Source of the DNA: Candidatus Binatia bacterium
GTDB taxonomy: Bacteria; Desulfobacterota; Binatia; UBA9968; CAXXLF01
DNA length: 64,000 nucleotides
Assembly (NCBI GenBank): GCA_963664015.2
Contig: CAXXLF010000001.1
Location: 960,001-1,024,000, forward strand
Direction: 5' to 3'
Every line of letters starts with the position of its first letter. The stretch's first letter is position 1. Under the pieces are notes generated by a model that did not search any database, was not told the DNA's origin, and saw only the letters and a list, made by a program, of their open reading frames with translations. Shown here one piece after another: positions 1 through 43,855 of the stretch. A program made the translations under genes and the position numbers.

Positions 1-923
1 TGTGGGTCATCCACCAGGTCCAATGGAGTAGAGACCGGCGCTGCTGGCACGTGGCGTTTTTGCGCCTCGGTAACAATCTCTATCTTGGAGAATCCCTTGG
101 ACCACATTCCCAAACGCTCGACGATCAAATCCTTTTTTGCATCACGCTCCGCCTCATCAACGAGAGAGGCGTCTGCCGATAGTACCGGGTCCTGAACCCA
201 ATCCACGAATTTACCCCACCCATCAGGTGATTGGGGAACGCTAACCATCCAGTAACCATCGGTACAGGGAAAAGCACCGGAAACCGCCGTGATGGCCCCA
301 CGATAACCAACCCGTTCCGTGACCTGCCCCCAACTGGTGTAGTCCACCATGGCCTGTTCGACGAAGGATTCTAAACATTGTCGAATGGAGACTTCGACGA
401 CCTGGCCTTGACCGGTTAGTTGCGAGCAAAACAACGCACCCGCAGCCGCCACCGAAACATAAAGGCCGGTCGCAGCGTAAACCACATGACCTCCCAACAG
501 GACCGGACGTTGGCCCGGGTGACCGGTAAGCGCTAAAAGTCCCGATCGGGCAACGGCACAGAGCTCGGGCTCGTCGTTAATAACCTTGATGAGGACCAGG
601 CGCGGGTTGGCCTCCAATATCTCACTCTCTTCCAATAGCAGGGGCGAGCTGGCAATCAGGGCATCAGCCGTACCTATAAGATCGAGCACGACTCGGCGAG
701 CCGCAGGGGCCTCCAAGTTTAGTTTCAGGCTCTGTTTCCCGGCATTAAAAAATTGGTGGTAGGCGCCCTTTTCCAGATCCGGCTTGTCGCCCAGGTAGGG
801 CCCCAGTCTCCTGAGGGAGTCACCTTGGGAAGACTCGATACGAATCACTTCATTCCCGGTCTCCGCCAAGAGCCGCGCGGCATATACCGCCGGATGGGCG
901 GCCATGTCAATAATGCGAGCCAT
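1..923 (-). CDS. Family III (CaiB/BaiF) CoA-transferase-like subunit, truncated at window edge; probably non-catalytic
   Basis: Not in the ORF track. ATG at 923 follows RBS AAGGAGG, and the frame is open to the window start. It reads MARIIDMAAHPAVYAARLLAETGNEVIRIE...FNAGKQSLKLNL..., typical of the CaiB N-terminus. Confidence 0.85.
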   Translation of the reverse strand, partial: MARIIDMAAHPAVYAARLLAETGNEVIRIESSQGDSLRRLGPYLGDKPDLEKGAYHQFFNAGKQSLKLNLEAPAARRVVLDLIGTADALIASSPLLLEESEILEANPRLVLIKVINDEPELCAVARSGLLALTGHPGQRPVLLGGHVVYAATGLYVSVAAAGALFCSQLTGQGQVVEVSIRQCLESFVEQAMVDYTSWGQVTERVGYRGAITAVSGAFPCTDGYWMVSVPQSPDGWGKFVDWVQDPVLSADASLVDEAERDAKKDLIVERLGMWSKGFSKIEIVTEAQKRHVPAAPVSTPLDLVDDP

Positions 924-993
924 CTTATCTGCACCTCCTTGGTAAGGATTCCGTGTCGATCGCTTGATTCATAGTTGATCTCCGTTCGACCCC

Positions 994-2244
994 TTACACC
1001 AGGCCGCCTTGATCTTCCAATTCCCTAACCTCGACCTCCGTAAGCCCCAACCAATCGTTCAATGCGTCTCGTGTATGCTCACCCAGGACGGGTGCCGGAC
1101 GCAGGCGCGACAATAGACTCGAACTGAAAGAAAAAGGTACTCCCGTGGTGAGAGTCGATCCACCTTGTGGGTCATCCCAAGGGTGAAAGACCTGGGCCCC
1201 GTCGGGCCCCTCCAGGACTTCGTTGATGCGTCGCATTCGCTCCGCAGGGACCCCCGCTTCTTTCAGGCACCTCTGGACTTCCTTTTTGGGCAGCCGGCTG
1301 GTCCACGACTCGATCAGCCTATCGAGTTCATCGTGGGCATCCATCCTTCCCTGCACCGTGGCAAACCGATCATCCCTCGCCCAACCAGGATTGCCGAGAG
1401 CCGAGGCGAAAGCTTGCCACTGTTCGTCGTTCTGGACACTAATGGCACACCACTCGTCGGCGCCCTCACAACGGTAAACACCCTGGGGAGCGGCGACCAT
1501 GGAACGATTACCCAACCGCGGCGCTGTACTTCCATTGACGATGCTGCTTAACAGGAGGGGACCAAACGTGGAGACGCTGCATTCGAACTGACTCAGATCT
1601 ATGTTGGTGCCCTGGCCGCTCTTCGCGCGTTGAGTCAAGGCCTGAAGGATACCGAAACAGGCATGGAGTCCGCCCATGTAGTCATTCCAGGAATTGGCGA
1701 TGGCTGTCGGCGGGTCCTTCTCCTCTCCGGTAACCATCATCAAACCCGTGTAGGCTTGAAGGTTCATATTCATACTGGTCCAGGATTTGCGCGGGCCGCT
1801 GTGTCCAAATCCGGACATACTGACGTAGATCAGCTTGGGATTCAGCGGTTGCAGATCCCCATAACCCAATTGAAGGCGATCCATAACACTGGCGCTAAAA
1901 TTCTCCACTACGATGTCAGCCATGCCCGCAAGTCGTCTGGCCAGGAGACGACCTGCCTCGGTCTTCAGATTTATGGTTATGGACCGCTTGCTCCGATTGG
2001 TGTTCAAAAAAGACGGAGCACGATCCTCACGGGTTCTGGGAGCAGCTCCTGCCGAGGTTTTCCTTGAGCCCAACCGTTCGGGCCTCGTAGCCGACTCGAC
2101 CTTGAGCACATCGGCACCCAGATCCGCCAGCAATCGAGTGCAGAATGGACCGGCAAGGACATGAGTAAAATCTAGTACACGAGTACCCGCTAGCGGCGAT
2201 CCATCTTTTTCGTTCGAGGAAGCACTTTGGCCATGGTGGTTCAT
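994..2244 (-). CDS. Family III (CaiB/BaiF) CoA-transferase
   Basis: Motifs PLAGTRVLDFTHVLAGPFC..LADLGADVLKVE, NRSKRSITINLK, ENFS, catalytic-Asp region SWNDYMGG, and APVLGEH. Confidence 0.93.
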   Translation of the reverse strand: MNHHGQSASSNEKDGSPLAGTRVLDFTHVLAGPFCTRLLADLGADVLKVESATRPERLGSRKTSAGAAPRTREDRAPSFLNTNRSKRSITINLKTEAGRLLARRLAGMADIVVENFSASVMDRLQLGYGDLQPLNPKLIYVSMSGFGHSGPRKSWTSMNMNLQAYTGLMMVTGEEKDPPTAIANSWNDYMGGLHACFGILQALTQRAKSGQGTNIDLSQFECSVSTFGPLLLSSIVNGSTAPRLGNRSMVAAPQGVYRCEGADEWCAISVQNDEQWQAFASALGNPGWARDDRFATVQGRMDAHDELDRLIESWTSRLPKKEVQRCLKEAGVPAERMRRINEVLEGPDGAQVFHPWDDPQGGSTLTTGVPFSFSSSLLSRLRPAPVLGEHTRDALNDWLGLTEVEVRELEDQGGLV

Positions 2245-2280
2245 AACGATAATCTTTTAGAAAGAAAATTCGCTGTGCTT

Positions 2281-3645
2281 TCAATCATTTACAACCTCCA
2301 TGGCCTGCATAATGAGGCGTTGCCAGTGACGGTAAAAAGCTCGCTCGCTGTCTTCGTTCAATCCCCCGTCCACCAGATCCCTTAGCGCTGGAACGGGTCG
2401 GTTTTTTGGGGAATCACCCAAACCCTTGCCGTATTGAAGCATCAACCGCTTCGCTATGGGACCCTGGAGCGAATGAGTGATTCCGGCCCAGTTTTCCATG
2501 TCATCTTGTTCAAACATCCCTCCCATGCCGAAAACACGCAGGTAAGATTCCCGTGAAGCCTGCTTCCACTCTTCCGATGCGTTCTTATCGACAAAATTCC
2601 ATGACCAGATTTCCATTCGATCCGCACCTTTAGGCTGCCACAGCCTCAAGGTCAGAAAAGATATCGCACCCTCCCCGGATTTTCCTCCGCCCCATTCCTC
2701 CGAGGTATGCTGGCCGCTGTTAAGGAAACTCATATTGGGAAAGACATTGCCGACAACGAACAAGAGCGGTTCGAGCATCTTCGACTGCTCTTCTGTGAGG
2801 CGGCTGTGGATTTCCGGGTACAAAGTCTCGGGTAATCCCAGGTTAAATTTGCCCTTAAAACTCGAGAGCGAAGAGGCATGGCCATTGTCGGTAATCAACC
2901 TATGATTGGTGCGTTCCCCTAGCATTTTGTCTTCCAAACCAAGGGCGGACCGAAAGCCATGAGTCGTAGCGAGATGGACGCCATCGCCGGAGAAATTGGC
3001 CGCCCCCAACTTCCAATTAGCATCAACCTCCCACCTCATTGGAGCACCCATGACTTCCATCTCTGCCGTTCTCCCGAACAGGATATCCAGGACCCACTTC
3101 ATCTCCCCCAGATAATCACCCAAGGGCTCGGCCTGAGCATCCCAATTGGCGAATATGAGACCATGATAACTGTCAACTCTGGCGGCCTGGTGAAGCCCCA
3201 GCTTGCTCATGTCCAATTTTCCGTTATAGCCCTCGAAAAAGGGGACCGCAATTAGCTCCCCACTGCTGTTGTAGGTCCAACCGTGGTACGAACAGCGGAA
3301 TTTGGCGGCCATGCCGCTGTCCAAAGGACAAACCCTCATACCCCGGTGACGACAGACATTTAAAAACACCCTGACCTTGCCATCCTGACCACGGCACACG
3401 ATGACCGGATCATCACCCATGAAGCGAGTTACAAAGTTCCCCGCCTGAGGCAACTCGGATTCATGGGCCACGTAAAGCCAGCACCGGGTAAAGATCCGCT
3501 CCATCTCCAAACGGTTGATTTCCGGGTTCGTAAAAACCTGTGAGCTGATCATTCCAGTGTCGACCCTAACGAGATCGCTCAAGAAACGCGCCTCGGCTTG
3601 ATCCATTTTCGATTCAGAAGGTGTGACGTTTTTTTTCATCGACAT
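2281..3645 (-). CDS. Aromatic ring-hydroxylating dioxygenase alpha subunit (Rieske, alpha/beta type), paralog A2
   Basis: Rieske motif CRHRG...CSYHGW; mononuclear Fe motif NFSGDGVHLATTH and EQDD. Start chosen at ATG 3645 after GGTGAGGG. Confidence 0.93.
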   Translation of the reverse strand: MSMKKNVTPSESKMDQAEARFLSDLVRVDTGMISSQVFTNPEINRLEMERIFTRCWLYVAHESELPQAGNFVTRFMGDDPVIVCRGQDGKVRVFLNVCRHRGMRVCPLDSGMAAKFRCSYHGWTYNSSGELIAVPFFEGYNGKLDMSKLGLHQAARVDSYHGLIFANWDAQAEPLGDYLGEMKWVLDILFGRTAEMEVMGAPMRWEVDANWKLGAANFSGDGVHLATTHGFRSALGLEDKMLGERTNHRLITDNGHASSLSSFKGKFNLGLPETLYPEIHSRLTEEQSKMLEPLLFVVGNVFPNMSFLNSGQHTSEEWGGGKSGEGAISFLTLRLWQPKGADRMEIWSWNFVDKNASEEWKQASRESYLRVFGMGGMFEQDDMENWAGITHSLQGPIAKRLMLQYGKGLGDSPKNRPVPALRDLVDGGLNEDSERAFYRHWQRLIMQAMEVVND

Positions 3646-3746
3646 TTTTCCCTCACCAGGCAATCGGTTTTATCAAAAAAAGCAAACCCCATGGGTTCCC
3701 TTTTGCGTCAGCCCCTCATTCACAAAATCACCAGGAACCCAACCCA

Positions 3747-4517
3747 CTATTGGGAGCAGCCGTTACAATAGGACGTGTAGAGGGCGTCGGGCCAGGAAAA
3801 GCCCTGGGGCCCTTGTTGGGTTCCTCCCATGGCCCGATCCACTTGCAACTTCATCCCACCATAGTCCTCTGCCGTGACCAGATTCAATCTATACAGCTTT
3901 GCCAATAACATGGCCCCCTCGGGTCCGTGCTCTTCCAGGTCCGCCACTACATGGAGATCAAAGTACTCGAGCAAGTCGTCCGGAACACCGTACTTGTCAT
4001 GTAAAATTTCTCGGTAGGACTTCATATAATAGCCCACAAAACCTTCAAGCATCCACCGGACAGCCGTCTGAGCCGGGCTCTGAGAACGGTAAAGCAGGCT
4101 CGTATTCAACCGAGCCTCCAACTCGGGGATGGGCTTTGAATAAAAAAGCTCCTCATCCTTCAGACCGAGATAATGTGCAAATTTTAGATACGTCCGACCG
4201 TGGCCACCCGGTCTAGGGTCAGATAACTCGGAGCCGATCTTTGCCGCTACAATGTCGTAGAGGTCCGGGTTCCGGCGCCACAAATCCATGTAACTCACCA
4301 GCGTCCAGGTCACATTGATGTTCGTCGCCTGAATAAAGATGTAATACTGTTTCGCGTACTCCTTTAGAAACTCAATGGAGACTTTTCCCCGGGAAAAATC
4401 ATCGTGAAACAGCCCCCGACCCCGGCCCGTTTTAAACGGATGATCCCTGGTCCTGTCATCAAACCAGATTTGAAAAGACTCAAAGGTGGGGAATACCGTG
4501 CGTTGATCAGCCTCCAT
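3747..4517 (-). CDS. Heme-oxygenase-like diiron (HDO; TenA/PqqC/CADD fold) protein HDO1
   Basis: Ligand pattern SELSDPRPGGH (E..H), WMLE (E), HVVADLEEH (H..D..H), plus an N-terminal HPF motif. Confidence 0.75.
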   Translation of the reverse strand: MEADQRTVFPTFESFQIWFDDRTRDHPFKTGRGRGLFHDDFSRGKVSIEFLKEYAKQYYIFIQATNINVTWTLVSYMDLWRRNPDLYDIVAAKIGSELSDPRPGGHGRTYLKFAHYLGLKDEELFYSKPIPELEARLNTSLLYRSQSPAQTAVRWMLEGFVGYYMKSYREILHDKYGVPDDLLEYFDLHVVADLEEHGPEGAMLLAKLYRLNLVTAEDYGGMKLQVDRAMGGTQQGPQGFSWPDALYTSYCNGCSQ

Positions 4518-4665
4518 CAATTAATGGCCTCGACACAACCGCCAGTGGGAATTTTCTGGTCTATCAAAAATGCAAACATGTGCAAGTATGGGAATTTGGC
4601 ATTTCACTCGGACGTCGCCCTCAACGAACTAGCATCCTGGTTTTGCTGTTAAAGGTTCCCACAAA

Positions 4666-5202
4666 TCAGAAAAAGATGCTCAGATTTCTCGACCCAACGA
4701 CAACCTGGTCCAATAGTATCGTCCTTGATGCCAACCGCCACTGATCCTGGACCCTGCGCATCAGATCCTTCCTCTCACCGGACAATATATCGGCACCCGA
4801 CGAATTGGTACGGTTGCGATAGACAAGAAAGTAGCTCATCACTTCAAGCTCCAGCGGGTTGGGAGTCGAATGCACACGCACATTCGTAATCAGATGGCGG
4901 GTCCTGGAAGGTGGACTCTCGGCCCAGGCAAAGTCCGTACCCAACCGTTTGATTCGCGTCTGGAGTGACGCCAGGTTTTCGGAAAATATTTCTGTCTTTT
5001 CAGTATAGTCTGGTTTCAAGGAGCGGCCGCGGTTTACACGGACCGGCATCCGGTAGTGAATATCCTCCGTCATCATCTCCAACCACTCTGAGAAACGCCC
5101 ATGGTCTAAAAATTCCGCCTCTTGCAGAAGAAATTCCAGGATCTCGGCGTATCGGGGATCGCCTGGACTAACGTTTTTTCCGTTTTCGGCCATTTGAGTC
5201 AT
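4666..5202 (-). CDS. Aromatic ring-hydroxylating dioxygenase beta subunit
   Basis: Motifs EFLLQEAEFLD..W, YRMPVR, AWAESPPSRTRHLITNV, GERKD, and C-terminal NLSIFF. Confidence 0.95.
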   Translation of the reverse strand: MTQMAENGKNVSPGDPRYAEILEFLLQEAEFLDHGRFSEWLEMMTEDIHYRMPVRVNRGRSLKPDYTEKTEIFSENLASLQTRIKRLGTDFAWAESPPSRTRHLITNVRVHSTPNPLELEVMSYFLVYRNRTNSSGADILSGERKDLMRRVQDQWRLASRTILLDQVVVGSRNLSIFF

Positions 5203-6517
5203 GTCCCGTTCGCGTCATGAGTTTTTGCCAATAACTATAAAACGCACGTTCGCTGTCTTCACTTAAGGCTCCATCTCTCACGTCCTTGAGGGACGGAATC
5301 GGACGTCCCTTGTGGGGCCGCCCCAACCCCATCTTGTATTGGAGCCAAAGCCGATTTGCAATGGGGCCCTGTAAGGCATCTGTGATATCGGCCCAGTTCT
5401 CCATGTCGTCCTGCTCGAACATCCCACCCATACCAAAGACGCGCAGGTAAGATTCTCTGGAATCTTCTTTCCATTTCGGTGAAGCATTCTTATCCACTAA
5501 GCACCACGACCACACCTCCATTTTACCCGCACCCTTAGGCTGCCACTGGCGTAGCGTCACGAAAGAGACCAACCCGCTCCCACTCCCCCCCCATTCCTCC
5601 GACGTATGCTGGGCACTGCTTAAAAAGCTCAAATTAGGGAAGATATTGCCTACGATAATGAGGAGAGGTTCCATAACCTTGCATTGCTCATCCGTGAGGT
5701 TGGACCGCATCTCCGCCTGCAGGTCCTCAGGAAGCCCCATGCAGTAGTTCCCCTTGAACCCCGAGAGCGCGGAGGCGTGTCCCCGGTTCGTCGTTAACCT
5801 ATAGCTGACACGTTCGCCTTTCAGCTTGTCCGCCAAACCGAGAGCTCCGCGAAATCCGTGGGTGGTAAAGATATGGGTTCCATCCCCGGCAAAATTGGCC
5901 GCTGCGAGCTTCCAATTAGCATCCGCCTCCCATCGCATCGGAGCACCCACAACTTCCATTCCCTCCGTGCGTCCGAACAACAGGTCCAACACCCACCGGG
6001 CCTCGCCCAGGTAGTCCCCCAACGACTCTGCCTTGGCGTCCCAATTGGCAAAAATGAGCCCGTGAAAGATCTCCAACTGGGGTGTCTCGTAAAGGCCCAA
6101 TAGGTCCTTGTCCAATTGACCTTGATAGCCTTCAAAAAAAGGGACCGAAATCAACTCCCCGTTGTTTCCGTAGGTCCAACCGTGATACGGGCACTTAAAA
6201 TGGGCCGCCTTGCCCATATCCTCGGAACAGACCCTCCTGCCCCGGTGACGGCAGACATTCAAAAATACCCGCACCTTGCCGTCCTGCCCCCGCCACACAA
6301 CCACCGGATCATCCCCCATCGTACGAGTGACAAAATCGCCGGGATTAGGGATCTCAGACTCATGGGCCACGTAGAGCCATGTGCGAGTAAAGATCCGCTC
6401 CATCTCCAAGCGGTTGGTCTCCGGATCGGTAAAAATGCGAGGATTCACGACCCCTTCCTGCGCCCGGAATAAATCCGCATGGGACCCGACTACTTTCTTA
6501 ACCGATTTGTATTTCAT
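5168..6517 (-). CDS. Aromatic ring-hydroxylating dioxygenase alpha subunit, paralog A1
   Basis: Motifs CRHRG...CPYHGW, NFAGDGTHIFTTH and EQDDMENW. Overlaps the beta gene start by 35 nt. Confidence 0.94.
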   Translation of the reverse strand: MKYKSVKKVVGSHADLFRAQEGVVNPRIFTDPETNRLEMERIFTRTWLYVAHESEIPNPGDFVTRTMGDDPVVVWRGQDGKVRVFLNVCRHRGRRVCSEDMGKAAHFKCPYHGWTYGNNGELISVPFFEGYQGQLDKDLLGLYETPQLEIFHGLIFANWDAKAESLGDYLGEARWVLDLLFGRTEGMEVVGAPMRWEADANWKLAAANFAGDGTHIFTTHGFRGALGLADKLKGERVSYRLTTNRGHASALSGFKGNYCMGLPEDLQAEMRSNLTDEQCKVMEPLLIIVGNIFPNLSFLSSAQHTSEEWGGSGSGLVSFVTLRQWQPKGAGKMEVWSWCLVDKNASPKWKEDSRESYLRVFGMGGMFEQDDMENWADITDALQGPIANRLWLQYKMGLGRPHKGRPIPSLKDVRDGALSEDSERAFYSYWQKLMTRTGHDSNGRKRKKR

Positions 6518-6804: not shown

Positions 6805-8226
6805 TTAGAAACGGAACCCGTATTCAGCCCAGCGACGGTTGACCAAATCCAGGTGTTCTTTATTGGGATCAGCGGAGGCGGGAAAATCTTCCTTCTCCAG
6901 GCTATACTCGAACTCGGGCCGAGTTGCGTCGATCCCCATCTTGTCCGAATGCAAGGCCTGGGATGGGGGTGTCGAAGGATCCAGGGCAATACCCCTTCCC
7001 TGACGAAGAATCTCAACGTCGCGCCCTGCCTGAACTCGAGTGGCTTGAGCCCATTCGACCTTCTGAGGATTCCAGGGGTCGACATCGTCATCCACCACAA
7101 TGCAAAGTTTGACCGACAGGGTAGGCATGCCCCAGACCAGGCTGAAGATGTCGCGCACTTGCCCCGGGTAGCTCTTCTTGATGCTCACGACGGCATGAAA
7201 CGTGCCGCAACCGCCTTCCGTCACGCACGCGTCCACGACACCGGGGATCCCGGCTTTCTCCAGGAACTGTTTCAAGCCCATGGATCCGCCCATGGCCCGT
7301 ACCGTCGTACTCTCGTTCGGCGAGCGTCCTTCATAAGTCCCCTGGAACAGAGGCTGCTCACGATGAGTCACCATCTTAACGACAATATAATTTTTGCGTG
7401 ACCGTGAAGTGCCCATGTACCCGGCAAATTCACCGAAGGGACCATCTGACGCACCGTACGCCTTATCGGTGGGCATCTCCCCCTCGATAATGATCTCCGC
7501 CCGAGCCGGGACCAGTAGATCGCTGGTCTTGGCCTTAATGACATCAATGGGTGCCCGTTTGAGGCCACCGGCGACGGAGTAATCCCCCAGCCCCGGCGGG
7601 ACGGCGCTCACGGTGATCAATGCAAGATAAGGATCCAAACCGATGGCAATAGCGATCGGCATGGGTTTCCCCATGGCCTTCCATTTGTTCCAGTGCTGCC
7701 AGAGGTGGCGCCGCGGGGACGAACTGCAGCCGAGAATATTGGGTTCGAAGATGGCGCTTCGATAAGTCCCCATATTGATCCAACCGAACTCGGGGTCCTG
7801 GGTAATGACCGTATGATAGGTCCCCAGCATGTATTTCCCATCCAGGTGATGCCAACGGGGAACCGGGAAAGGGTCCTTGAACAGATCGATATTGTCGATC
7901 ACCACCTCGTGGCAAGGAGCCTCGTGAACTTCCCGCGGCTGAACGGGACAGGCATAGGCTTGGGCCCAACGGTCCCCAATTGCCGAAATATTCGGCTCGA
8001 CCCCAAGGGCCTGCGCGTAGCGTTTACGTGTCCCCAAAACGCCGGTCACCAGAGGGGTTGAGAAGCTGCCCACTCGTTCGAAGATCAAGGCTGGGCCGTT
8101 GCGGTCCGACACCTCACGGCATATGGCCCCAACTTCCCATTCACGGTCGACGGGGACGGTGATGCGATGCAGCTCGCCCTCTTGCTCAAGCGCTGTTGTA
8201 AATTCTCTCAAGTCATTGAAGGCCAT
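6805..8226 (-). CDS. UbiD-family prFMN-dependent (de)carboxylase 1
   Basis: Motifs MAFNDLREF, NMGTYR, AEIIIEG, DGPFGEFAGY, VVDDDVDP and KMGIDAT. Confidence 0.92.
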   Translation of the reverse strand: MAFNDLREFTTALEQEGELHRITVPVDREWEVGAICREVSDRNGPALIFERVGSFSTPLVTGVLGTRKRYAQALGVEPNISAIGDRWAQAYACPVQPREVHEAPCHEVVIDNIDLFKDPFPVPRWHHLDGKYMLGTYHTVITQDPEFGWINMGTYRSAIFEPNILGCSSSPRRHLWQHWNKWKAMGKPMPIAIAIGLDPYLALITVSAVPPGLGDYSVAGGLKRAPIDVIKAKTSDLLVPARAEIIIEGEMPTDKAYGASDGPFGEFAGYMGTSRSRKNYIVVKMVTHREQPLFQGTYEGRSPNESTTVRAMGGSMGLKQFLEKAGIPGVVDACVTEGGCGTFHAVVSIKKSYPGQVRDIFSLVWGMPTLSVKLCIVVDDDVDPWNPQKVEWAQATRVQAGRDVEILRQGRGIALDPSTPPSQALHSDKMGIDATRPEFEYSLEKEDFPASADPNKEHLDLVNRRWAEYGFRF

Positions 8227-8259: not shown

Positions 8260-9396
8260 CTAACCCTGGACGACGCTCCCTGGTAACGCCACAGGGGACA
8301 TCTGGCATGCAACGCCTGCCTCTCCCAGTGCCTCGATGAAATCTCGACGAATTTGAGGATCTTCATTTTCATAATCGATCATCGCGCCCCCTTTCTTGAT
8401 ACTGAGAACCGTAGCCCTCGTGTTGTCACGGCCGCGAAGCCCGATCCGATATTTGGCACCTCCGGTGCGAAAAGCAATGTGGCGGGCGGGTTCCCCTCCG
8501 GTATTGAAGTGTTGATGAAACCAACCATCGCCGGGACTGTAGACGGCTCCGTCACCCCAGTTGATTCGGAGCACTCGATCGCCATAGCCATCCTTGAACG
8601 GAGTGGTCCCAAACTCCTTCGGCCACATTAATACGTATCCCTTGGATCTCAAACCGAGGAGGATCGCGCCCGGCCCGTGATAGTGGGCCTTGTGATACAT
8701 CCCCACCGGCCATTGGGAGATATGCCCGGTTAGAATATTTTCCGAAATTTCGAAGCCCATGATGCTCACTCTTTCACCCTTGGGACGCTCCCGGGGATCC
8801 ACGAAGGCGTTTCTCAAATCTGGAATGAAGTTGGTCTCCCAGACCACATGTTCTCCTGCGGCCCGTTCCACCCGCTCCCCAACCTTGAAGTAATCCGACT
8901 CCCCGTTGTAACGATCCGTAAAGACAAAGCTGTCTCCAAAGACGAACTCCGGATTGTGAAAAAGATCCATAACAATGGGGGCGTTGGTTACTCCAAGGAA
9001 AATGACCGGCTCTTTGCCCACGTTGTACAGGCGATGCCATGCATTTAAAGGCGGGGCAAAGAAGCTGCCTTCGCCCCATTCGAAGCTCTTTTGGGGTTGC
9101 CCTTCCTGCCAGATCTGAGTCGCTCCCTGGCCATTTAGGATATAAATTAGCTCTTCATAGAGGTGTTTCTCAGGATTGAGAGCAGCTCCGGGCGGGATTT
9201 CTCCCACGTACATCCCGGTGAAACCGCTTTCCCTTACCCCATTGAGATAAAGAAAGGCCCCTTTTCCCCCGGTCCGGGCCCACTCCCTACGGTCGACCTT
9301 TCGGACGTCTTCGATACCCCCTTCCGCCTCTACGATGGGTATCCCCTCTCCCTTCATCCACTCCTCGTAGGACGTGGCCTCCGGGACTTTGCTCAT
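8260..9396 (-). CDS. Bicupin protein (gentisate-dioxygenase-like architecture), function unknown
   Basis: Two cupin domains: PEKHLYEELIYILNGQG...NAWH and HKAHYHGPG...WFHQHFN. The start could be 9414 or 9450. Confidence 0.8.
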   Translation of the reverse strand: MSKVPEATSYEEWMKGEGIPIVEAEGGIEDVRKVDRREWARTGGKGAFLYLNGVRESGFTGMYVGEIPPGAALNPEKHLYEELIYILNGQGATQIWQEGQPQKSFEWGEGSFFAPPLNAWHRLYNVGKEPVIFLGVTNAPIVMDLFHNPEFVFGDSFVFTDRYNGESDYFKVGERVERAAGEHVVWETNFIPDLRNAFVDPRERPKGERVSIMGFEISENILTGHISQWPVGMYHKAHYHGPGAILLGLRSKGYVLMWPKEFGTTPFKDGYGDRVLRINWGDGAVYSPGDGWFHQHFNTGGEPARHIAFRTGGAKYRIGLRGRDNTRATVLSIKKGGAMIDYENEDPQIRRDFIEALGEAGVACQMSPVALPGSVVQG

Positions 9397-9474
9397 ACTA
9401 ACTGGCCTCTTCATCAAAAACTCTGTTTCAGCTCTGGACCTCCGAACCAATGATCGTCAAATGGTCACTCCTAC

Positions 9475-11128: not shown

Positions 11129-11899
11129 CTACGCAACCTTTTGCTGTTCCTGGTAACTGGCGTAAAGGGCATCCGGCCAAGGCAACATTTGACTTCCCGG
11201 CCGGGCACCTTGAACAGCCCTTTCCACCTGCACCCTCATGCCATCGTAGTCCTCTTCCTTCACCAGTCCGAGTTTGTAGAGTTTGGCCAGCAGCAGTTCG
11301 CCTTCGGGACCGTGTTCCTCTAGATCCGCCACCACATGGATATCCCAATACTCGAGTAGGTCATCGGGAATGTCATACTTCTCATGCAGGATCTCACGCC
11401 AGAACTTCATGCTGTAACCGACAAATCCTTCCAGCATCCACCGAACCGCCGTTAGTGCCGGGCTCTGGGAGCGGTACACCAAGGCCGTATTGAAACGCGC
11501 CTCCAGCTCGGCAATGGGCTTGGAAAAGAAGAGATCCTCGTCTTTCAGTCCCAGATAGTGAGCGAATTTAAGATAGGTCCGTCCATGCCCGCCGGGACGT
11601 GGGTCCGACAGTTCGGAACCGATCTTTGACGCCACAATGTCGTAGAGGTCCGGATTTCTACGCCACAGGTCCAGATAGTTCACAATGGTCCAGGTTACGT
11701 TGGTATTGGTGAGCTGGATAAATATGTAGTACTGTTTCGCGTATTCTTTTAGAAACTCCAGCGGGACTTTCCCCGCACCAAAATCGTCGTAGAATCGCCC
11801 CCGCTGTTTCCCCGTCTTAAATGGATGGTTTTCGGTCTTTACCTCAAACCACGATTTAAACGATTCGTACGTAGGAAAATTCAATTGTTCACCAGCCAT
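11129..11899 (-). CDS. HDO-fold diiron protein HDO2 (close paralog of HDO1)
   Basis: Motifs SELSDPRPGGH, WMLE and HVVADLEEH; long stretches are identical to 3747..4517. Confidence 0.75.
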   Translation of the reverse strand: MAGEQLNFPTYESFKSWFEVKTENHPFKTGKQRGRFYDDFGAGKVPLEFLKEYAKQYYIFIQLTNTNVTWTIVNYLDLWRRNPDLYDIVASKIGSELSDPRPGGHGRTYLKFAHYLGLKDEDLFFSKPIAELEARFNTALVYRSQSPALTAVRWMLEGFVGYSMKFWREILHEKYDIPDDLLEYWDIHVVADLEEHGPEGELLLAKLYKLGLVKEEDYDGMRVQVERAVQGARPGSQMLPWPDALYASYQEQQKVA

Positions 11900-11945: not shown

Positions 11946-12671
11946 CTACAATCCCTGATACACCCGGATCAGGTACTCTGCATATCGTTTGGCCACGTGT
12001 TGAATGCCAAAGTTGGGTCGCTCCTCGACCAGCCCTCGATCAAAAAGAGATTTGAGCAAGAACCTTCCCGGGCTCCCGTGACTCGTCAGCCAACACGCCT
12101 CCCAGTTCTCAAAATAATCCAAGGCATCCCCCTTGAGACCGAACGGAGGCTTACCGAGGGCTTCCTGAAATAGGGCGCAAAACTTCAAAAGATACTCTTC
12201 ACCGATTAGCTGTGCGGCAAACTCGGCCAATGTCCCTTCCAAGTAAACCGATTTGAGAAAACTTGTCATATGAACCGTGTAGGGTCCCGGGCGCGAGGTG
12301 AGCAGCTGCTCATGGTTCATCCCCAGGGCCCGGCCCAAGAGCAGGAGCCCTTTGACATGGCCACCGGGATACGGATAGTTGAGCGACTTCCCCGCCCGCT
12401 CGGTTACGATTTCTTCTATATCAGGATATCGCCCCAATATATAATGATGCCGCGACCAAAGCAGCGCTCGGTGCATGTCGGTTTCCTGAACGTGGTTGTA
12501 CCAGTTCCCCAGCCAACCCTTGAGCCGGTCCTCGGTCAACCGTCCTGCCCGCAGGTCTTGAAAAAACGGTAGATCGATCCATTGCTCAAACAACGGCTTT
12601 GCCTCTCGCTCCCACCAACTCTCGTAATCCGCATACGACCCCGGGCTCGACTCCGTAATGTTGGCTTCCAT
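11946..12671 (-). CDS. Divergent HDO-fold protein HDO3 lacking several metal ligands
   Basis: Aligns to HDO1/2 through PYPGGH and LFDRGLVEE, but has E->S, H->W and D->W at ligand positions. Start follows GGAGGAGG (alternative start 12689). Confidence 0.65.
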   Translation of the reverse strand: MEANITESSPGSYADYESWWEREAKPLFEQWIDLPFFQDLRAGRLTEDRLKGWLGNWYNHVQETDMHRALLWSRHHYILGRYPDIEEIVTERAGKSLNYPYPGGHVKGLLLLGRALGMNHEQLLTSRPGPYTVHMTSFLKSVYLEGTLAEFAAQLIGEEYLLKFCALFQEALGKPPFGLKGDALDYFENWEACWLTSHGSPGRFLLKSLFDRGLVEERPNFGIQHVAKRYAEYLIRVYQGL

Positions 12672-12699
12672 TAGGTAGGCCTCCTCCATTTATAAAGAC

Positions 12700-14877: not shown

Positions 14878-14921
14878 CAAGTTTCCTCCCATTAACAATT
14901 TGTTTCTCCGTTGGGTTAAAC

Positions 14922-24947: not shown

Positions 24948-25055
24948 GAAAACTCCTCCCTAACCTTTCAAAATAATCATCTTTTAAAAACACTTCAGGT
25001 ACGCCCATGCGCGCACGATCTCACACCAACCTCCTGCCACCATCGGCCGGATTCA

Positions 25056-27402: not shown

Positions 27403-27930
27403 TTACGCAGACTTTTTCTCTTCCTTGAAATCCGGCGAGTCTTCCACCTGTTCAAACATATTGCCCAGGACCTTGGAAAAAGGATTGTACCTGAAGGCCA
27501 TCCACTTGGCCGGCGTTCCCGGAACTTTATTGTAGTGCTTGTGGACGCAGCCTTTGGGTTTAACCGGCAAGATGATGAGATCCCATTTTTGCCAATCTAC
27601 CGTACTACCATCCACCTCGGTAGCCCCGTCACCTTCAAGAACAAACAGCTGAATTCCACCCTGATGCTTGTGTTTGCCCGAGTGCTGTTTGACGTCGTGA
27701 ATAAAGCAGCTCCAATCGGTTATTGCCGTGTCACTGATGCCGTGCCAGGAAAGATAGGTCCGAATAAGTCCTTGCCGGCCCTGATGCCAGGGGCGCTCCT
27801 TGGCCTTGATCACGATCTTGCCTGTCTTGGCTTTTTCCCGTGCCTCCGCGTTGAGCCTCAAGGTGGCTTCGTAATGTTCCCCCTGGTCTTTCTGTACGGG
27901 TTCTTTTTCTCTAACCCTTTCTCTCTCCAT
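27403..27930 (-). CDS. Monocupin C4 (MERERVREKEP family)
   Basis: Motifs SGKHKHQGG and VHKH. First gene of the C4-C6-EutA-Cdc48-aldolase run. Confidence 0.88.
   Translation of the reverse strand: MERERVREKEPVQKDQGEHYEATLRLNAEAREKAKTGKIVIKAKERPWHQGRQGLIRTYLSWHGISDTAITDWSCFIHDVKQHSGKHKHQGGIQLFVLEGDGATEVDGSTVDWQKWDLIILPVKPKGCVHKHYNKVPGTPAKWMAFRYNPFSKVLGNMFEQVEDSPDFKEEKKSA
27794..27930 (-). repeat. 137-bp near-identical direct repeat, copy 1 (5' end of cupin C4)
   Basis: Matches 40252..40388 at 133 of 137 positions by manual comparison. Confidence 0.9.
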
Positions 27931-29514: not shown

Positions 29515-29630
29515 AGCTAGACTCCCTAAAAAGCCACTCAACCTCTATTATAGTGGGCTTTGGTTGATAACCGACACGACTCCACCTGTTATATCCCCAG
29601 CATTTCCAATGATTCAATGAATGACTGGGT

Positions 29631-30809
29631 TCAACGTGAATCGGGTTGAGAGGCGAGTACCACGTTTTGATCCGCCAACCCTATCGGCGTCACCCACTGT
29701 TTGAGCGGAAGTCCCGCCCCATAGGCCCCGAGCTCACGCTCCCAAATCTTTCGTATGAAGACCAGCCCGATATCGTTCGGAACCAGTCGTTCATTGGTGC
29801 GATCGGGGATGGCGCCCTGACCAACCAGAGTTACGTAATCCTCCACCCAGAAAGAGTAGTATGTTGGTGTTTCCCGATCCATGTCCTCGATACGAGCCTT
29901 CCCCGCAAGCACGGCCTCAGCTATATCGTTCGGCGATTGGCTCATAGTGGCCCGAGCCTGTTGCCGGCGTTCCTGATACCGACCGGCCGCCTCTCCCGTC
30001 AGCGGGATCCAGTCTACGATGAAGGTCACGTTGCTTTCGTCGTCGATGGGAACATGCATCAAATAGCGATCCACAAACAAGTTCTTCACGTCTTCCAGGG
30101 AACCTTCCACCCGAGCTCGAGAACGCGACTGGATAACATTCGGCATATGAAAATGGATGTATTGCACCGGTGCTCCAGGGACATTGGACCCCATTCTGCA
30201 CCCGTACTCGGTCTCCTCCGCAGACACCTTGCGCGGGACGAGACGGTCCGTTTGCCCCGCCCGCGATAAGGACTCACGATGGACGAAGGGCACGTGAGCC
30301 GGATCGTTTTCAATCCGGTTAAAGTAGTTGCACGGCCAGATCTCCGGGGTCCCCGCCTCCAAGATACCTGGCCTCTCCATATCTGGGTACCGTCGTAACG
30401 GCGGAGGCTCCCCTTCACCTAGGTAGGCAAAGATAAGCCCCAGATATTCCTGCGTGGGGTAGCTGCGGATCTTCACTTTGGGCCCATTGGATTCCTCTTC
30501 CCCAGGTTGCTCGACACATTGTCCAGAACCGTCGTACTTCCAGCCATGGTAACGGCACCGGACGCAATCCCCCTCCACCCAACCGGTGGCTAGTTGAGTC
30601 CCCCGATGGGCGCAACGAAAGGCCACCACATAGGGCGTCCCGGTCTCGCCCCTGTAAAGAGTGAACCACTCGCTCATGATTTGAATTGGGACTATCTTCC
30701 CTGACGGTAAATCCTGAGCTCGATAGACCGGTTGCCAGAACCTCCGCAGGTAACTGCCAGCCATCGTGCCAGGGCCGGTTCGTGCAAAATCAATAGACGC
30801 ATCACTCAT
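29631..30809 (-). CDS. Rieske oxygenase, alpha-only (phthalate/vanillate clade), paralog R1
   Basis: Motifs TGPGT.AG.YLRRFW, CAHRG...CRYHGW, ENDPAHVPFVH and EDY...GQG. Confidence 0.9.
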   Translation of the reverse strand: MSDASIDFARTGPGTMAGSYLRRFWQPVYRAQDLPSGKIVPIQIMSEWFTLYRGETGTPYVVAFRCAHRGTQLATGWVEGDCVRCRYHGWKYDGSGQCVEQPGEEESNGPKVKIRSYPTQEYLGLIFAYLGEGEPPPLRRYPDMERPGILEAGTPEIWPCNYFNRIENDPAHVPFVHRESLSRAGQTDRLVPRKVSAEETEYGCRMGSNVPGAPVQYIHFHMPNVIQSRSRARVEGSLEDVKNLFVDRYLMHVPIDDESNVTFIVDWIPLTGEAAGRYQERRQQARATMSQSPNDIAEAVLAGKARIEDMDRETPTYYSFWVEDYVTLVGQGAIPDRTNERLVPNDIGLVFIRKIWERELGAYGAGLPLKQWVTPIGLADQNVVLASQPDSR

Positions 30810-38606: not shown

Positions 38607-38664
38607 CCTTTGTTTCCCTATCTCTAGCTAAATGAAAAAGCTTTCCCGAATTGCGCGAGCCCTG

Positions 38665-39822: not shown

Positions 39823-39839
39823 TTATCTGAAGTTCCCTT

Positions 39840-40388
39840 TCAGCCTCCCAATCCCAACGTCGCCGAAACCTTATTTCTGTCTTCCCAGTCGCTGGAGTCC
39901 TCCACATGATCGAACATATTTCCCAAGACGTTGGAAAAAGGGGCGTAGCGAAAGGCCATCCAACGGCATGGCGCGCCCTGGTTCTTACTGTAATGCTGGT
40001 GTTCGCAGCCGTTGGGCTTGACCGGCAAGACAATCAGATCCCATTTTTTCCAGTCTACCTTCGTTCCATCCACCACCGTGGAGCCCTCGCCTTCCAGGAT
40101 AAATAACTGGATTCCACCCTGATGGCGGTGCTTCCCAGAGTGCACCCGGAGGTCTTTAATGAAAACTGTCCAGTCCGTTGCCGCCGTATCCCCTCTTCCG
40201 TGCCAGGAAAGGAACTGCTTCGAGCACCCCATCCTTGTTTGCTGCATGGGACGCTCCTTGGCCTTGATCACGATCTTGCCTGTCTTGGCGCGTTCCCGTG
40301 CCTCCGCGTTGAGCCTCAAGGTGTCTTCGTAATGTTCCCCCTGGTCTTTCTGTACGGGTTCTTTTTCTCTAACCCTTTCTCTCTCCAT
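39840..40388 (-). CDS. Monocupin C5 (MERERVREKEP family)
   Basis: Motifs SGKHRHQGG and EHQH. Heads the Rieske/beta-HAD run. Confidence 0.88.
   Translation of the reverse strand: MERERVREKEPVQKDQGEHYEDTLRLNAEARERAKTGKIVIKAKERPMQQTRMGCSKQFLSWHGRGDTAATDWTVFIKDLRVHSGKHRHQGGIQLFILEGEGSTVVDGTKVDWKKWDLIVLPVKPNGCEHQHYSKNQGAPCRWMAFRYAPFSNVLGNMFDHVEDSSDWEDRNKVSATLGLGG
40252..40388 (-). repeat. 137-bp near-identical direct repeat, copy 2 (5' end of cupin C5)
   Basis: 133/137 identical to 27794..27930. Confidence 0.9.
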
Positions 40389-40612
40389 AGCTCTTTCTCC
40401 TCTAGCCGCTTGTTATCGCTTGGCATCAGTTAAACAGGACCCCGTGCCCGAGTACAAAGGGCAACGTGTTCCGGATAACACGCGCGGCCTGACCGAGTCA
40501 AGGTAACCCGTGGACTTGGTAGCCGACATCAGGGGATTCTTGACATAGCATGCCAAGTCTGCTGTATTCAGGTTTCTTTCCCATACCGACTTCGAGAAAG
40601 GATTACGATTCC

Positions 40613-41407
40613 ATGGAAGATTTTGTCGCCCTCAGAAAACGGGCAAGTGAGATGTACGAGAAAAACACGTCACCCAGGCACTCCCCGTACTTTCCGCCTG
40701 CTCCGACCACGTTTCTCTCCCCGGAAGAGTTTCTGGCCCAGTTGGCTGAAGCGGTCTTTGTCAATTCTCCCAAAGTCCAGCACCCCTTTGTGGTCAAGCT
40801 GGTCAAAGGGGAGTGGAGCCTCAAACAGATTCAGGAATGGGCCAAGGAAGGGTACCACGACAAGGTCCAGACCATCCGCAACGATGCCATGATTGTCGCC
40901 ACGGCCCCGACCCTGGAAGAAATGAAGAAACAGGCAAGCGTCCTAGCCTGTGAGGTCGGAATCGAGAGCGGCGGCGAGCCCAGTCACCCGGAACTCTGGC
41001 TCCAATTCGGTGAGGCCATGGGGCTCACGAAACAAGAAATCATGAATTCCAAGCCCACGGCAATCACCGAGATCGTACTAACAGCGGAGCATGCCCGTTC
41101 CATGATGCAAAAGATCGGCGGTCTGCCGGCCAACCTGCGCTTGGGTGAACGGGTCACCTCCATCGTCTACTCAATCTGGGCGGAGGCCCTGAGGAAGAAT
41201 TACAACGTGTCCAAGGAAGGGGTCTCTTTCTTTACCTCCCATGAAGAGGCCGACGAAGACCACAGCGACATCGGCAAGCAGATCGTGCTCTCCCGTGCAA
41301 CGACTCGGGAGGCGCAATTGGAGATGTGGCACCATCAGGAGCGCTCCGGTGCCCGGCAATGGGTCAGCTACGACGGCTACTACCAAGCCGCCACGCGGGT
41401 CCAGTAG
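40613..41407 (+). CDS. HDO-fold diiron protein HDO4 (CADD/PqqC-like)
   Basis: Motifs HPFV, ACEVG...SHPELWLQFGEAMGL, LGE and FFTSHEEADEDH. Confidence 0.8.
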   Translation: MEDFVALRKRASEMYEKNTSPRHSPYFPPAPTTFLSPEEFLAQLAEAVFVNSPKVQHPFVVKLVKGEWSLKQIQEWAKEGYHDKVQTIRNDAMIVATAPTLEEMKKQASVLACEVGIESGGEPSHPELWLQFGEAMGLTKQEIMNSKPTAITEIVLTAEHARSMMQKIGGLPANLRLGERVTSIVYSIWAEALRKNYNVSKEGVSFFTSHEEADEDHSDIGKQIVLSRATTREAQLEMWHHQERSGARQWVSYDGYYQAATRVQ

Positions 41408-41430
41408 AATTCTGAACCCTACAAACCGCC

Positions 41431-42273: not shown

Positions 42274-42486
42274 AGTGTTCCCTCCCTGAACTCATGCAAC
42301 GGGCGAAGCCGGCGGTTGCCGTAGCCCGACGGCACATAAAATGTACAAACGCTATATCCCTATTGTCCATTACAGTCAAACTAACCTAGTCCGCGCCTTA
42401 TCCGAGGATATCGATACACCAACCGGAGGTTGACACCACATAGTTTTATTGCCATGTATTCAAGGAATCTTCGGGAGCGATATATT

Positions 42487-43356
42487 ATGTTAAAGCCATT
42501 TCGGCTTCTCGAACCCGACACGGTCGCCGAGGCAGCGGCCGAGCTGGTTGGGGAAGAAACAAAAATATATGCGGGGGGAGCCGAGCTTCTCTTGCTGCTC
42601 CGCCACGGGCTCTTGGACGCAGCAACTCTGGTCAACATCAAACGGATCGCCAGTCTCAACGAGGTCAGTTGGGACGGTAGCAACCTCCGCATCGGGTCCA
42701 CGGTGACGCATCACAGGCTGGAGACGCATCCCCTGGTCCGAGAGCACCTCCCGATGCTGGCCCAGGCCGAGTCCCACATTGGAAACATTCGCGTCAGAAC
42801 CCAGGGAACTCTGGGGGGCAACCTCTGTTTCGCCGACCCCCACGCCGATCCGGCGACGGCGCTGCTGGTTCATGAAGCTACGGTAACCGTCGCGGGGAAA
42901 GAGACAAACCGCCAATTGGGCATGAAAGAGTTCCTAGTTGGTATGTACGAGACGGCCCTTCAACCGGACGAGCTACTCACCCAGGTCCAGGTCCCTCCCT
43001 TACCGGCGGGCTGGGGGCACGCCTATTTGAGAATCGAGCGCTTCTACCGGCCAACGGTCAATGTCGCCGCAGCGGTCCGATTGAGTGATGGAAAACTCGA
43101 TGGTGTTCGACTGGCCGTAGGATGTGTCGGTCCTAAGGCTCAACGGTTACAGGAATTGGAAGCCAAGATCTCCGGATTGCCGTTAGAAGAAGCCGAACGG
43201 GTGGTTACCGAATCCAAGCCCTATATCACCGACGAACTCCATCCGGTGGATGATCTCCTCGGATCGGCCGACTACAAGATTCACGTCACCAGCGTGCTGC
43301 TGAAAAAGGCCTTGGGCCAATCGCTCCGCAACGGAGGGGAAGCCAAACATGGATGA
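42487..43356 (+). CDS. Molybdenum hydroxylase FAD-binding medium subunit (CoxM/CutM-like)
   Basis: Motifs AGGAELL, IGNIRVRTQGTLGGNLC.ADP.AD and DD..GSADYK. Confidence 0.9.
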   Translation: MLKPFRLLEPDTVAEAAAELVGEETKIYAGGAELLLLLRHGLLDAATLVNIKRIASLNEVSWDGSNLRIGSTVTHHRLETHPLVREHLPMLAQAESHIGNIRVRTQGTLGGNLCFADPHADPATALLVHEATVTVAGKETNRQLGMKEFLVGMYETALQPDELLTQVQVPPLPAGWGHAYLRIERFYRPTVNVAAAVRLSDGKLDGVRLAVGCVGPKAQRLQELEAKISGLPLEEAERVVTESKPYITDELHPVDDLLGSADYKIHVTSVLLKKALGQSLRNGGEAKHG

Positions 43357-43855
43357 AAAGCCTGAAGAGCTGAAGACTCTGCAATCGATCGAGATTTCCC
43401 TGACGGTTAATGAGAAGACGTGGAGTGGAGAGGTCCCCGTAGAAGAAGTCCTGTTAGACTTTTTAAGATACCGAGTAGGGCTGACCGGCACCAAGCGTTC
43501 GTGTGAATCCCAGGTGTGCGGCGCCTGCACCGTTCTCGTTGGCAATCAACCAATCAGCTCCTGTAGTTACCTAGCCTTTGAGGCCAATAACCGATTGGTG
43601 ACAACGGTAGAGGGGTTAGCAGTAGGAGAACAGTTGGATCCTCTTCAGTCAGCCTTTATTCGCAATGTGGGGACCCAGTGCGGGTACTGCACCCCTGGAC
43701 AATTGATGGCCGCCAAGGGCCTCTTGCTGCACAACCCGACTCCCACCTACGAACAGATCGCCGAATGGATGAAGGGAAACATTTGTCGCTGCGGCTGCTA
43801 CCCGGCCATCGCTCAATCCATCCTCGAAGCTGTCGAGGAGCGCCAGAAGCCCTAG
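43349..43855 (+). CDS. Molybdenum hydroxylase [2Fe-2S] small subunit (CoxS/CutS-like)
   Basis: Motifs GLTGTKRSC...CGACTV...SC, QCGYCTPG and GNICRCG.Y. Confidence 0.93.
   Translation: MDEKPEELKTLQSIEISLTVNEKTWSGEVPVEEVLLDFLRYRVGLTGTKRSCESQVCGACTVLVGNQPISSCSYLAFEANNRLVTTVEGLAVGEQLDPLQSAFIRNVGTQCGYCTPGQLMAAKGLLLHNPTPTYEQIAEWMKGNICRCGCYPAIAQSILEAVEERQKP

Follow-up and report, generated by a model that had tools for sequence, protein, structure and literature searches.

Within a 64,000-nucleotide stretch of the genome of an uncultured marine Candidatus Binatia bacterium (contig CAXXLF010000001.1, positions 960,001 to 1,024,000, or G000:C1:960001-1024000 in our numbering; hereafter 'the window'), a catalytic monocupin gene lies directly upstream of a paralog, C6, that has none of the three metal-binding histidines. 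We consider it reasonably probable that the two together make up a split version of the two-barrel (bicupin) gentisate/salicylate 1,2-dioxygenases, set in a vertically inherited, gene-dense catabolic region that occupies the first 44 kb of the window; this is one joint estimate for the gene pair, its setting and the readings of the other three partner families preferred below. C6 is one of four partner genes, the others being a ligand-poor heme-oxygenase-like dimetal oxidase (HDO), a coenzyme A (CoA)-transferase without the catalytic Asp and a Rieske oxygenase beta subunit, and each stands, as an earlier reading of this DNA (the first-pass annotation) had described, beside a catalytic copy; the spacing ranges from a 35-nt overlap to 70 nt. 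Judged from the alignments, the partners are conserved, selected, non-catalytic paralogs, pseudo-enzymes that would most likely form pairwise heteromers with the catalytic paralog encoded next to them. The source genome (G000; 3.5 Mb in two contigs), whose closest relatives among the collected genomes bear the title 'uncultured Candidatus Binatia bacterium', was compared above all with G002, from another genus of the same family, and with G004, the three genomes together spanning two genera. Genes are our own longest-open reading frame (ORF) calls, and the 40 non-overlapping long ORFs in positions 1-43855 were counted as genes.

The small cupin genes of the window are the following.

20261-20782, 20841-21362 and 21436-21969, + strand: three tandem monocupins with three His ligands (3-His), with no adjoining partner gene.
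27403-27930, - strand: 3-His monocupin directly upstream of C6, recognized by its His motifs and its identity to the paralogs.
26877-27362, - strand: C6, ligand-less monocupin, the proposed non-catalytic subunit of a split bicupin dioxygenase.
39840-40388, - strand: fifth 3-His monocupin, upstream of a Rieske oxygenase, with no adjoining partner.

The five catalytic monocupins are about 175 amino acids (aa) long and 66-87% mutually identical, and all of them carry both cupin motifs (HxH as motif 1, PxGxxHxxxN as motif 2). C6 is 31-36% identical to them and replaces the three His by Q, V and Y, so that the five His-liganded cupins and the ligand-less one of the first-pass annotation are indeed present. 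Genome-wide, G000 has 10 intact catalytic monocupins, each with its three His ligands complete, and one broken copy against a single C6; the broken copy (G000:C1:627375-627892) is in three pieces with in-frame TGA stops. More distant small cupins with full His ligands also occur (G000:C2:1804601-1805725 and C1:268289-268804); two of them adjoin each other, and both of these are liganded. The C6 orthologs of G002 and G004 are 89% identical to it and lie within a conserved string of nine genes.

Outside this genome the C6 type is widespread and consistently without a metal site. Standalone homologs form 191 clusters at E<=1e-10, from sources labelled Chloroflexi, Hyphomicrobiales and Binatia among others; the His triad is found in none of the 120 C6-type clusters among the matches listed, and an alignment of 40 sequences has 32 invariant columns. 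Among 80 metagenome loci picked with the C6 profile, the His ligands are complete in 59 of 63 catalytic-type ORFs, the other four being cut by contig ends, versus none of 76 C6-type ORFs. Seven of these loci are fused and 42 have an adjacent catalytic gene on the same strand (17 with the catalytic gene followed by C6, 20 in the reverse order, two with two catalytic genes, one with three and two with two full pairs), while 19 have too little flanking sequence to judge. The remaining 12 comprise four with a divergent catalytic gene, five with one within about 3.3 kb (in two of them a CDC48-like gene lies between), one overlapping ORF call and two in which about 590 bp on one side hold no catalytic gene. 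C6 falls into two subtypes, which follow the order of the genes. In a sister family, all five standalone catalytic genes detected among the 30 nearest genomes lie 62-224 bp from a C6-type gene; the distribution in the wider phylum is patchy, with no match at E<=1e-33 in 150 other genomes, a search made for the C6 side only. That the C6 type is a large, undescribed family of metal-site-less monocupins is, on this comparison of sequences, well supported.

The identity of the two barrels points in the same direction. Among solved structures, the C6 profile has its best match in the C-terminal (second) barrel of the gentisate dioxygenases (3bu7 275-363, 2d40 252-328, 3nst 267-330), and a structural model of C6 with a predicted local distance difference test score (pLDDT) of 87.8 has 3bu7 and 2d40 as its top Foldseek matches; in sequence, the catalytic protein matches the gentisate and salicylate 1,2-dioxygenases (GDO and SDO; E 3e-9 to 1e-5) and, weakly, the Cupin_2 family. 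In GDO and SDO the second barrel is a metal-free remnant (PMC10306065, partial text). Two bicupins of G000 join the same two kinds of barrel in opposite orders: in C2:629428-630501 the C-terminal half is C6-like (49% identical to C6, with Q-x-H and H at the ligand positions, hence two of three His), in C1:268883-269929 it is the N-terminal half (42% identical, ligand-less), and in both the other half is liganded and resembles the catalytic monocupins. Because the C6 type is nearly always found beside a 3-His monocupin, or fused to one in either order, and because C6 matches the metal-free second barrel while its neighbour matches GDO and SDO, we read 27403 and C6 as a split GDO-like bicupin, in which 27403 would hold the Fe(II) site and C6 would correspond to the metal-free second barrel that is fused in the classical enzymes. 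The cupin genes keep company with Rieske, UbiD, amidohydrolase_2 and aldolase genes, a context that suggests O2-dependent ring cleavage of a hydroxy-aromatic acid by the catalytic cupins. Contigs from RNA libraries in all four of four seawater metatranscriptome runs (four studies) cover C6 and 27403, one error-free contig bridging both genes, and others lie on 20841 and 21436; DNA carry-over is possible in such libraries, and the contigs amount neither to proof of transcription nor to a ranking of expression, the uncovered parts being uninformative.

The partner genes are maintained by selection. Rates of nonsynonymous and synonymous substitution (dN and dS) were taken from G002 versus G004, where dS is unsaturated (0.1-0.9), because dS is saturated or undefined for most genes in G000 versus G002. 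The ratio dN/dS is 0.045 for C6, 0.083 for HDO3 (the ligand-poor HDO), 0.088 for the Asp-less CoA-transferase and 0.143 for the Rieske beta subunit; in the same run several spurious antisense ORFs reach 0.3-3, and others fall inside the range of real genes. The first-pass annotation had allowed that the partners might be decaying pseudogenes with dN/dS near 1, and the strong purifying selection implied by 0.045-0.143 rules this out. In the comparison of G000 with G002, C6 has the lowest dN of 28 genes.

A more ambitious reading is that the single C6 is a non-catalytic subunit common to many or even all of the 9-10 catalytic monocupins, with which it would pair in trans to give specificity variants on one scaffold, and we put this, judged from gene counts and trees, somewhat short of an even chance. 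The ratio of catalytic monocupins to C6 is 10:1 in G000, 10:1 in G002 and 9:1 in G004, that is, in two genera, and no searched genome has a standalone catalytic monocupin without a C6-type gene (in G001 the sole copy is cut by a contig end). In a maximum-likelihood tree (IQ-TREE; 31 rows including two bicupin halves as outgroups), 20261 groups with the C6-adjacent cupins of G002 and G004 (support 100/99), while 27403, the neighbour of C6 in the window, groups instead with 20841 (86/81); it follows that the neighbour of C6 changed orthogroup between the genera. An unrelated metagenome lineage has operons with two or three catalytic genes and one C6 (L031, L032, L035), the residues beside the metal ligands vary among the catalytic paralogs, and the low dN of C6 between genera is as a shared subunit would have it. 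In contrast, the ratio is 1:1 at most loci elsewhere, with two complete pairs at two loci, and the orphan catalytic cupins of G000 are dispersed over both contigs in other operons. Several genes also fall below C6 in dN in the closer G002-G004 comparison, and the monocupin 5-nitrosalicylate 1,2-dioxygenase (8ch4), though a remote relative (E 0.25), is an active homotetramer described without a partner subunit (PMC10306065, partial text). The surplus catalytic paralogs (nine cupins, two HDOs) may either borrow the single partner, which is plausible for the cupins, or act alone; the conserved ratio of about 10:1 in one Binatia family is, as far as the literature searched shows, new.

The genes on both sides of C6 belong to the same conserved string.

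28093-29541 and 29631-30809 (together 28093-30809), - strand: UbiD-family decarboxylase and alpha-only Rieske oxygenase, upstream of C6.
22788-24947 and 25056-26615 (together 22788-26615), - strand: CDC48-like double-AAA ATPase and EutA-like ATPase, downstream of C6.

The order of the ATPases and C6 is kept in G002 and G004. Among 24 long metagenome loci with C6 and catalytic cupins, CDC48-like genes occur in seven (L061, L064, L069, L073, L086, L088, L089), in five of them directly downstream of C6, and EutA-like genes in three. The two ATPases may use ATP to assemble or reactivate either the dioxygenase or the UbiD enzyme; no description of a EutA/AAA+ reactivase of UbiD was found in the literature searched. 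The widest form of the shared-subunit reading, in which one C6 would serve 9-10 catalytic monocupins in trans in one Binatia family, the C6 type would be an obligate second barrel, the two ATPases might handle loading or exchange, and HDO3 might follow the same pattern, we regard as rather unlikely.

The second partner that lacks metal ligands is HDO3, and the four HDO genes of the region are these.

3747-4520, - strand: HDO1, heme-oxygenase-like dimetal oxidase with the full set of three His and three carboxylate ligands (3His/3carboxylate), from the ligand alignment.
11129-11899, - strand: HDO2, full ligand set, directly downstream of HDO3; G002 and G004 orthologs are 87-88% identical.
11946-12689, - strand: HDO3, ligand-poor paralog, in which the ligand positions read S, H, E, W, W, H.
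40550-41407, + strand: HDO4, canonical CADD/PqqC-like HDO (TIGR04305, E 6.1e-20; E-x6-H and HxxxDxxH).

In HDO2 numbering the ligands are E96, H105, E157, H188, D192 and H196, which are among the 11 invariant columns of the HDO1/2-family alignment; the corresponding motifs (E-x8-H, E, H-x3-D-x3-H) are common to HDO1, HDO2 and six further HDO paralogs of G000. The 3His/3carboxylate set is thus present in HDO1, HDO2 and HDO4 and absent from HDO3, which together with 17 full-length homologs (63-88% identical) has Ser, His/Gln, Glu, Trp, Trp/Leu/Phe and His/Tyr at these positions, only the alpha2 Glu ligand being kept throughout the 17. The grouping of two HDOs with a ligand-poor one therefore stands as first proposed; HDO1 and HDO2, at 75% identity, are not the near-identical pair that they had been called. 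HDO3 occurs in four of 31 genomes (G000, G002, G004, G011), exactly those with HDO1/2-type genes, of which they have three, three, five and two copies, respectively; each of the four has one HDO3 gene, which immediately precedes an HDO1/2-type gene. The HDO1/2 family is very small, with 49 representatives at E<=1e-3 among 1.84 billion. The window HDO proteins match Pfam Haem_oxygenas_2 or TENA, and a PDB sequence search with HDO1-3 gave no match better than E 0.1.

At least five clusters (P0141, P0142, P0145, P0187, P0189) hold tandem HDO fusions of about 510 aa, in which the N half has all six ligands and the C half is without most of them. The model of P0141, built from seven sequences only, is a compact two-domain body (pLDDT 84.9; predicted template modelling score, pTM, 0.87), and among solved structures it is best matched by chains of CtCADD, each roughly the length of one domain (template modelling score, TM, 0.86-0.87 on target length). 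By analogy with these fusions, we give an even chance to HDO3 being the pseudo-heterodimer partner of HDO2; in this mechanism a heme-oxygenase-like protein without a metal site would work with HDO1/2-type dimetal oxidases, probably as a pseudo-dimer partner. HDO heterodimers were not found described in the literature searched, and the words 'heterodimer' and 'homodimer' are absent from a 2026 HDO review as far as its accessible text goes (PMC13108848). The examples in that review are mostly from natural-product or cofactor (p-aminobenzoate, pABA) synthesis (PMC13108848, partial text). It is unusual for HDOs to lie, as the HDO1/2-type genes do, in catabolic strings with Rieske, UbiD and bicupin genes. 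As far as the literature searched shows, both a ligand-poor HDO partner and tandem fusions of HDO domains are new.

Several observations weigh against treating C6 and HDO3 as subunits of their neighbours. HDO3 has its best Pfam match in TENA/THI-4, a family that includes metal-free enzymes, and it evolves faster than HDO2 (dN 0.183 versus 0.086, G000 versus G002). The fused HDOs are only 24-29% identical to HDO3, for which reason we take them as an analogy and not as orthologs, and in them the complete domain precedes the poor one, opposite to the gene order HDO3-HDO2. Fusion and adjacency also fit two sequential enzymes, the compared genomes are kin, so that co-occurrence counts overstate independence, and both the lower dN of several genes in the G002-G004 comparison and the partnerless homotetramer of 5-nitrosalicylate 1,2-dioxygenase apply here too. 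Furthermore, C6 keeps an invariant His at the position that contacts the substrate carboxylate in salicylate dioxygenase (a role taken from PMC10306065, partial text), and because of this His it may bind a ligand and thus not be purely structural.

Such points are the basis for an alternative in which C6 and/or HDO3 are separate metal-free proteins that act on intermediates (for example, as an isomerase or tautomerase of the ring-cleavage product) or serve as a substrate or effector binder or carrier. Adjacency and fusion would then mirror consecutive steps, and many of the 32 invariant columns of the C6 type are polar (R13, D14, R17, E35, N37, H47, H119, N121), which seems beyond the need of a passive scaffold; one of the invariant residues is the counterpart of the His with which salicylate dioxygenase binds its substrate. 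HDO3 likewise has 72 invariant columns, many of them Trp, and resembles TenA-type proteins. On the other hand, C6 maps onto the second barrel of GDO, a non-functional remnant packed on the catalytic barrel (PMC10306065, partial text), the cupin fusions occur in both orders, and the fused double HDO is predicted to form one compact body. We consider separate proteins improbable, and continue with the reading in which C6 and HDO3 are partner subunits.

The CoA-transferases and Rieske oxygenases at the left end of the window are of a more familiar kind.

3-923, - strand: Asp-less family-III CoA-transferase subunit, BbsE-like (Pfam CoA_transf_3); cut by the window edge, the full gene encoding 374 aa.
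994-2244, - strand: catalytic family-III CoA-transferase subunit, BbsF-like (Pfam 3.8e-106), with the Asp retained.
2281-3663, - strand: extra Rieske alpha without its own beta (Rieske and Ring_hydroxyl_A), ligand motifs intact.
4666-5202, - strand: Rieske beta (Ring_hydroxyl_B, E 9.9e-42).
5168-6517, - strand: Rieske alpha, overlapping the beta gene, Rieske and Fe motifs intact.

At the catalytic-Asp column of the CoA-transferases, 994-2244 has D and 3-923 has Tyr, in keeping with the catalytic and Asp-less copies first noted. Their best PDB matches are, reciprocally, the two chains of benzylsuccinate CoA-transferase (9fn0_B, E 2.7e-67, for 994-2244; 9fn0_A, E 4.1e-27, for 3-923), and 9fn0_A likewise has Tyr where 9fn0_B has Asp. 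Three such adjacent D/Y pairs occur in G000; with regard to succinyl-CoA:benzylsuccinate specificity, NCBIfam equivalog scores are all far under their cut-offs. By its residues and matches, the pair is a two-subunit family-III enzyme of the BbsEF type, an arrangement that is already known and 1:1. The two Rieske alphas at the locus are 68.5% identical and come, as had been stated, with one beta gene, with CxH...CxxH and the Fe motif in the alphas and Ring_hydroxyl_B in the beta. At the corresponding locus of G002 and G004 (alpha-beta-HDO1-CoA-transferase) there is a single alpha, and a counterpart of 2281-3663 was not found there; the three other alpha-beta pairs of G000 are all 1:1, giving five alphas to four betas in the genome. 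The Rieske set is, from this gene content, an ordinary alpha-beta oxygenase with a genome-specific duplicate alpha; the extra alpha could possibly borrow the beta subunit, yet this would not be a conserved design.

The full claim of the first-pass annotation, that all four families follow one combinatorial design in which a shared structural subunit is loaded with exchangeable catalytic subunits, is accordingly very unlikely: inactive paralogs do adjoin active ones in all four families, and inactive pseudo-enzyme subunits are found elsewhere in aromatic pathways (for example, BbsCD, a paper on which is among the references of PMC10818641), but each of the three CoA-transferase pairs is 1:1, G000 has a 2:1 Rieske ratio that G002 and G004 lack, most cupin loci elsewhere are 1:1, and the Rieske beta has a fold different from that of alpha (Pfam) and is not a ligand-less paralog. 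Among relatives, the one-to-many copy number that the claim called for thus holds across genera for the cupins and the HDOs (in G000, three HDO1/2-type genes to one HDO3) and fails for the CoA-transferases and, in G002 and G004, for the Rieske genes.

The region around these pairs is dense and diverse. Coding sequence makes up 93% of positions 1-43855, the biggest gap between genes being 287 bp, and Pfam and NCBIfam assign to it, besides the two family-III CoA-transferases, two Rieske alphas and one beta, four alpha-only Rieske oxygenases, three UbiD decarboxylases, four HDO proteins, six small cupins and one bicupin. Further genes encode dehydrogenases, an amidohydrolase_2 protein, a dihydrodipicolinate synthase (DHDPS)-like aldolase and a class II aldolase, the CDC48-like double-AAA and EutA-like ATPases, two major facilitator superfamily (MFS) transporters, two solute-binding proteins and CoxM and CoxS homologs. 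The paralog families named at first all exist, although that inventory had passed over the fourth HDO (40550-41407, + strand), the bicupin at 8260-9450, the four alpha-only Rieske oxygenases and the three UbiD paralogs. Housekeeping genes (ilv, leu, asd, truA, dxr, rseP) follow at 50-64 kb. The left limit of the region as described is the window edge only; the first gene reaches past it by 202 nt, and about 6 kb upstream there is one more cupin paralog.

The word 'island', which had been used for this DNA, is misleading. The region is collinear with G002 in inverted orientation, with the leuA/leuB/asd/truA flank included, and GC content is even along the stretch (0.51-0.57). As first noted, the 44 kb has no recognizable transcription factor or mobility gene: none of its 40 genes matches a helix-turn-helix (HTH), transposase or integrase Pfam family at E<=1e-5, and Rfam and tRNA searches of the stretch gave no matches. 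Synteny with a sister genus, the bordering housekeeping genes, even GC and the lack of integrase, transposase or tRNA matches together rule out a mobile island.

One further gene of the region belongs to another cupin family.

8260-9450, - strand: bicupin of another family, 396 aa (Cupin_2, from sequence reading).

Its N domain is read as lacking His ligands and its C domain as carrying HxH..H, and homologs occur in eight of the 24 long metagenome loci with C6 and catalytic cupins. The three UbiD-family paralogs (6805-8226, 17540-19045 and 28093-29541, all on the - strand) are 27-31% mutually identical; general family scans of 60 window ORFs gave no match to the UbiX-type flavin prenyltransferase family. 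Finally, the longest ORF of an SBP_bac_1 gene shares 100 nt with the GFO/IDH/MocA gene upstream of it (13714-15021 and 14922-16112, - strand) and its Pfam match begins at residue 110, which together indicate that the real start probably lies further downstream.

If the 3-His monocupins of this clade do need a separate metal-free barrel, the consequences are practical. Ring-cleaving cupin dioxygenases are as a rule treated as single genes, both in annotation and in expression work; a catalytic gene expressed on its own in another host would then not work or would give misleading results, and C6-type genes, now named 'gentisate 1,2-dioxygenase' or 'hypothetical' in sources, would need re-annotation. 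With the ratio conserved at 10:1, a single pseudo-enzyme would serve as scaffold to a family of paralogs, something rarely met in nature, and a shared scaffold would be a cheap way of widening substrate range in degraders of complex aromatic matter. To judge from HDO3 with its neighbour and from the tandem fusions, some dimetal enzymes of the heme-oxygenase-like kind may act as pseudo-heterodimers, and the HDO1/2 and HDO3 findings place HDOs in catabolism rather than in natural-product synthesis.

Pairs of a catalytic subunit and a homolog that lost its iron ligands are familiar from protocatechuate 3,4-dioxygenase (alpha/beta) and 2-aminophenol 1,6-dioxygenase (AmnAB), ring-cleavage enzymes that have folds other than those of the cupins and HDOs and a strict 1:1 stoichiometry. 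Like BbsEF (9fn0), the CoA-transferases here are two adjoining paralogous family-III subunits with Asp in one chain and Tyr in the other; unlike BbsEF, they occur as three pairs in G000, in a setting of aerobic oxygenase genes and not in an anaerobic bbs operon. Like the CtCADD/PqqC HDOs, HDO1, HDO2 and HDO4 carry the 3His/3carboxylate motif (as defined in PMC13108848, partial text); unlike them, HDO3 is without most ligands, and the HDO1/2 family is rare and lies in a catabolic string.

For the cupins, the closest comparison is with the gentisate and salicylate 1,2-dioxygenases (3bu7, 2d40, 2phd/3nst), with which they share the cupin fold, the 3-His Fe site and the arrangement of HxH in motif 1 and H in motif 2. 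Of the features of class III cupin dioxygenases, the barrel fold is found on both sides (in the model of C6 and, by sequence, in the catalytic proteins) and the 3-His site in the catalytic proteins, not in C6. In contrast to GDO and SDO, the barrels here are separate genes with remote similarity, both gene and fusion orders occur, and there are 9-10 catalytic genes per partner; in the alignment the catalytic protein also lacks the Arg that helps SDO to bind its substrate. A split or heteromeric gentisate-type cupin enzyme was not found described in the literature searched, and we regard it as new that metal-less second barrels for GDO-like monocupins exist as proteins of their own, in a large family. 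The catalytic monocupins also resemble 8ch4, a class III ring-cleaving dioxygenase with a single barrel of about 180 residues, three His ligands and a long N-terminal arm, which is barely detectable by sequence (E 0.25 for the catalytic protein, as above, and 0.88 for C6). The proposed architecture itself has its nearest likeness in the hydroquinone 1,2-dioxygenases, heterotetramers of two cupin subunits with one functional metal site (PMC10306065, partial text), with which the gene pair of catalytic cupin and C6 and its residue pattern, known here from genes, are consistent. Their site is 2-His-1-Glu and not 3-His (PMC10306065, partial text); neither this site nor sequence kinship of the hydroquinone type is seen here, where the site is 3-His, and no hydroquinone dioxygenase chain is among the PDB matches at E<=1 for either the catalytic protein or the C6 profile. 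Heteromers of a catalytic subunit and an inactive paralog are nonetheless an established kind (BbsEF; BbsCD, by a title among the references of PMC10818641; hydroquinone dioxygenase, PMC10306065, partial text), and it is to this kind that the pair of 27403 and C6 would belong.

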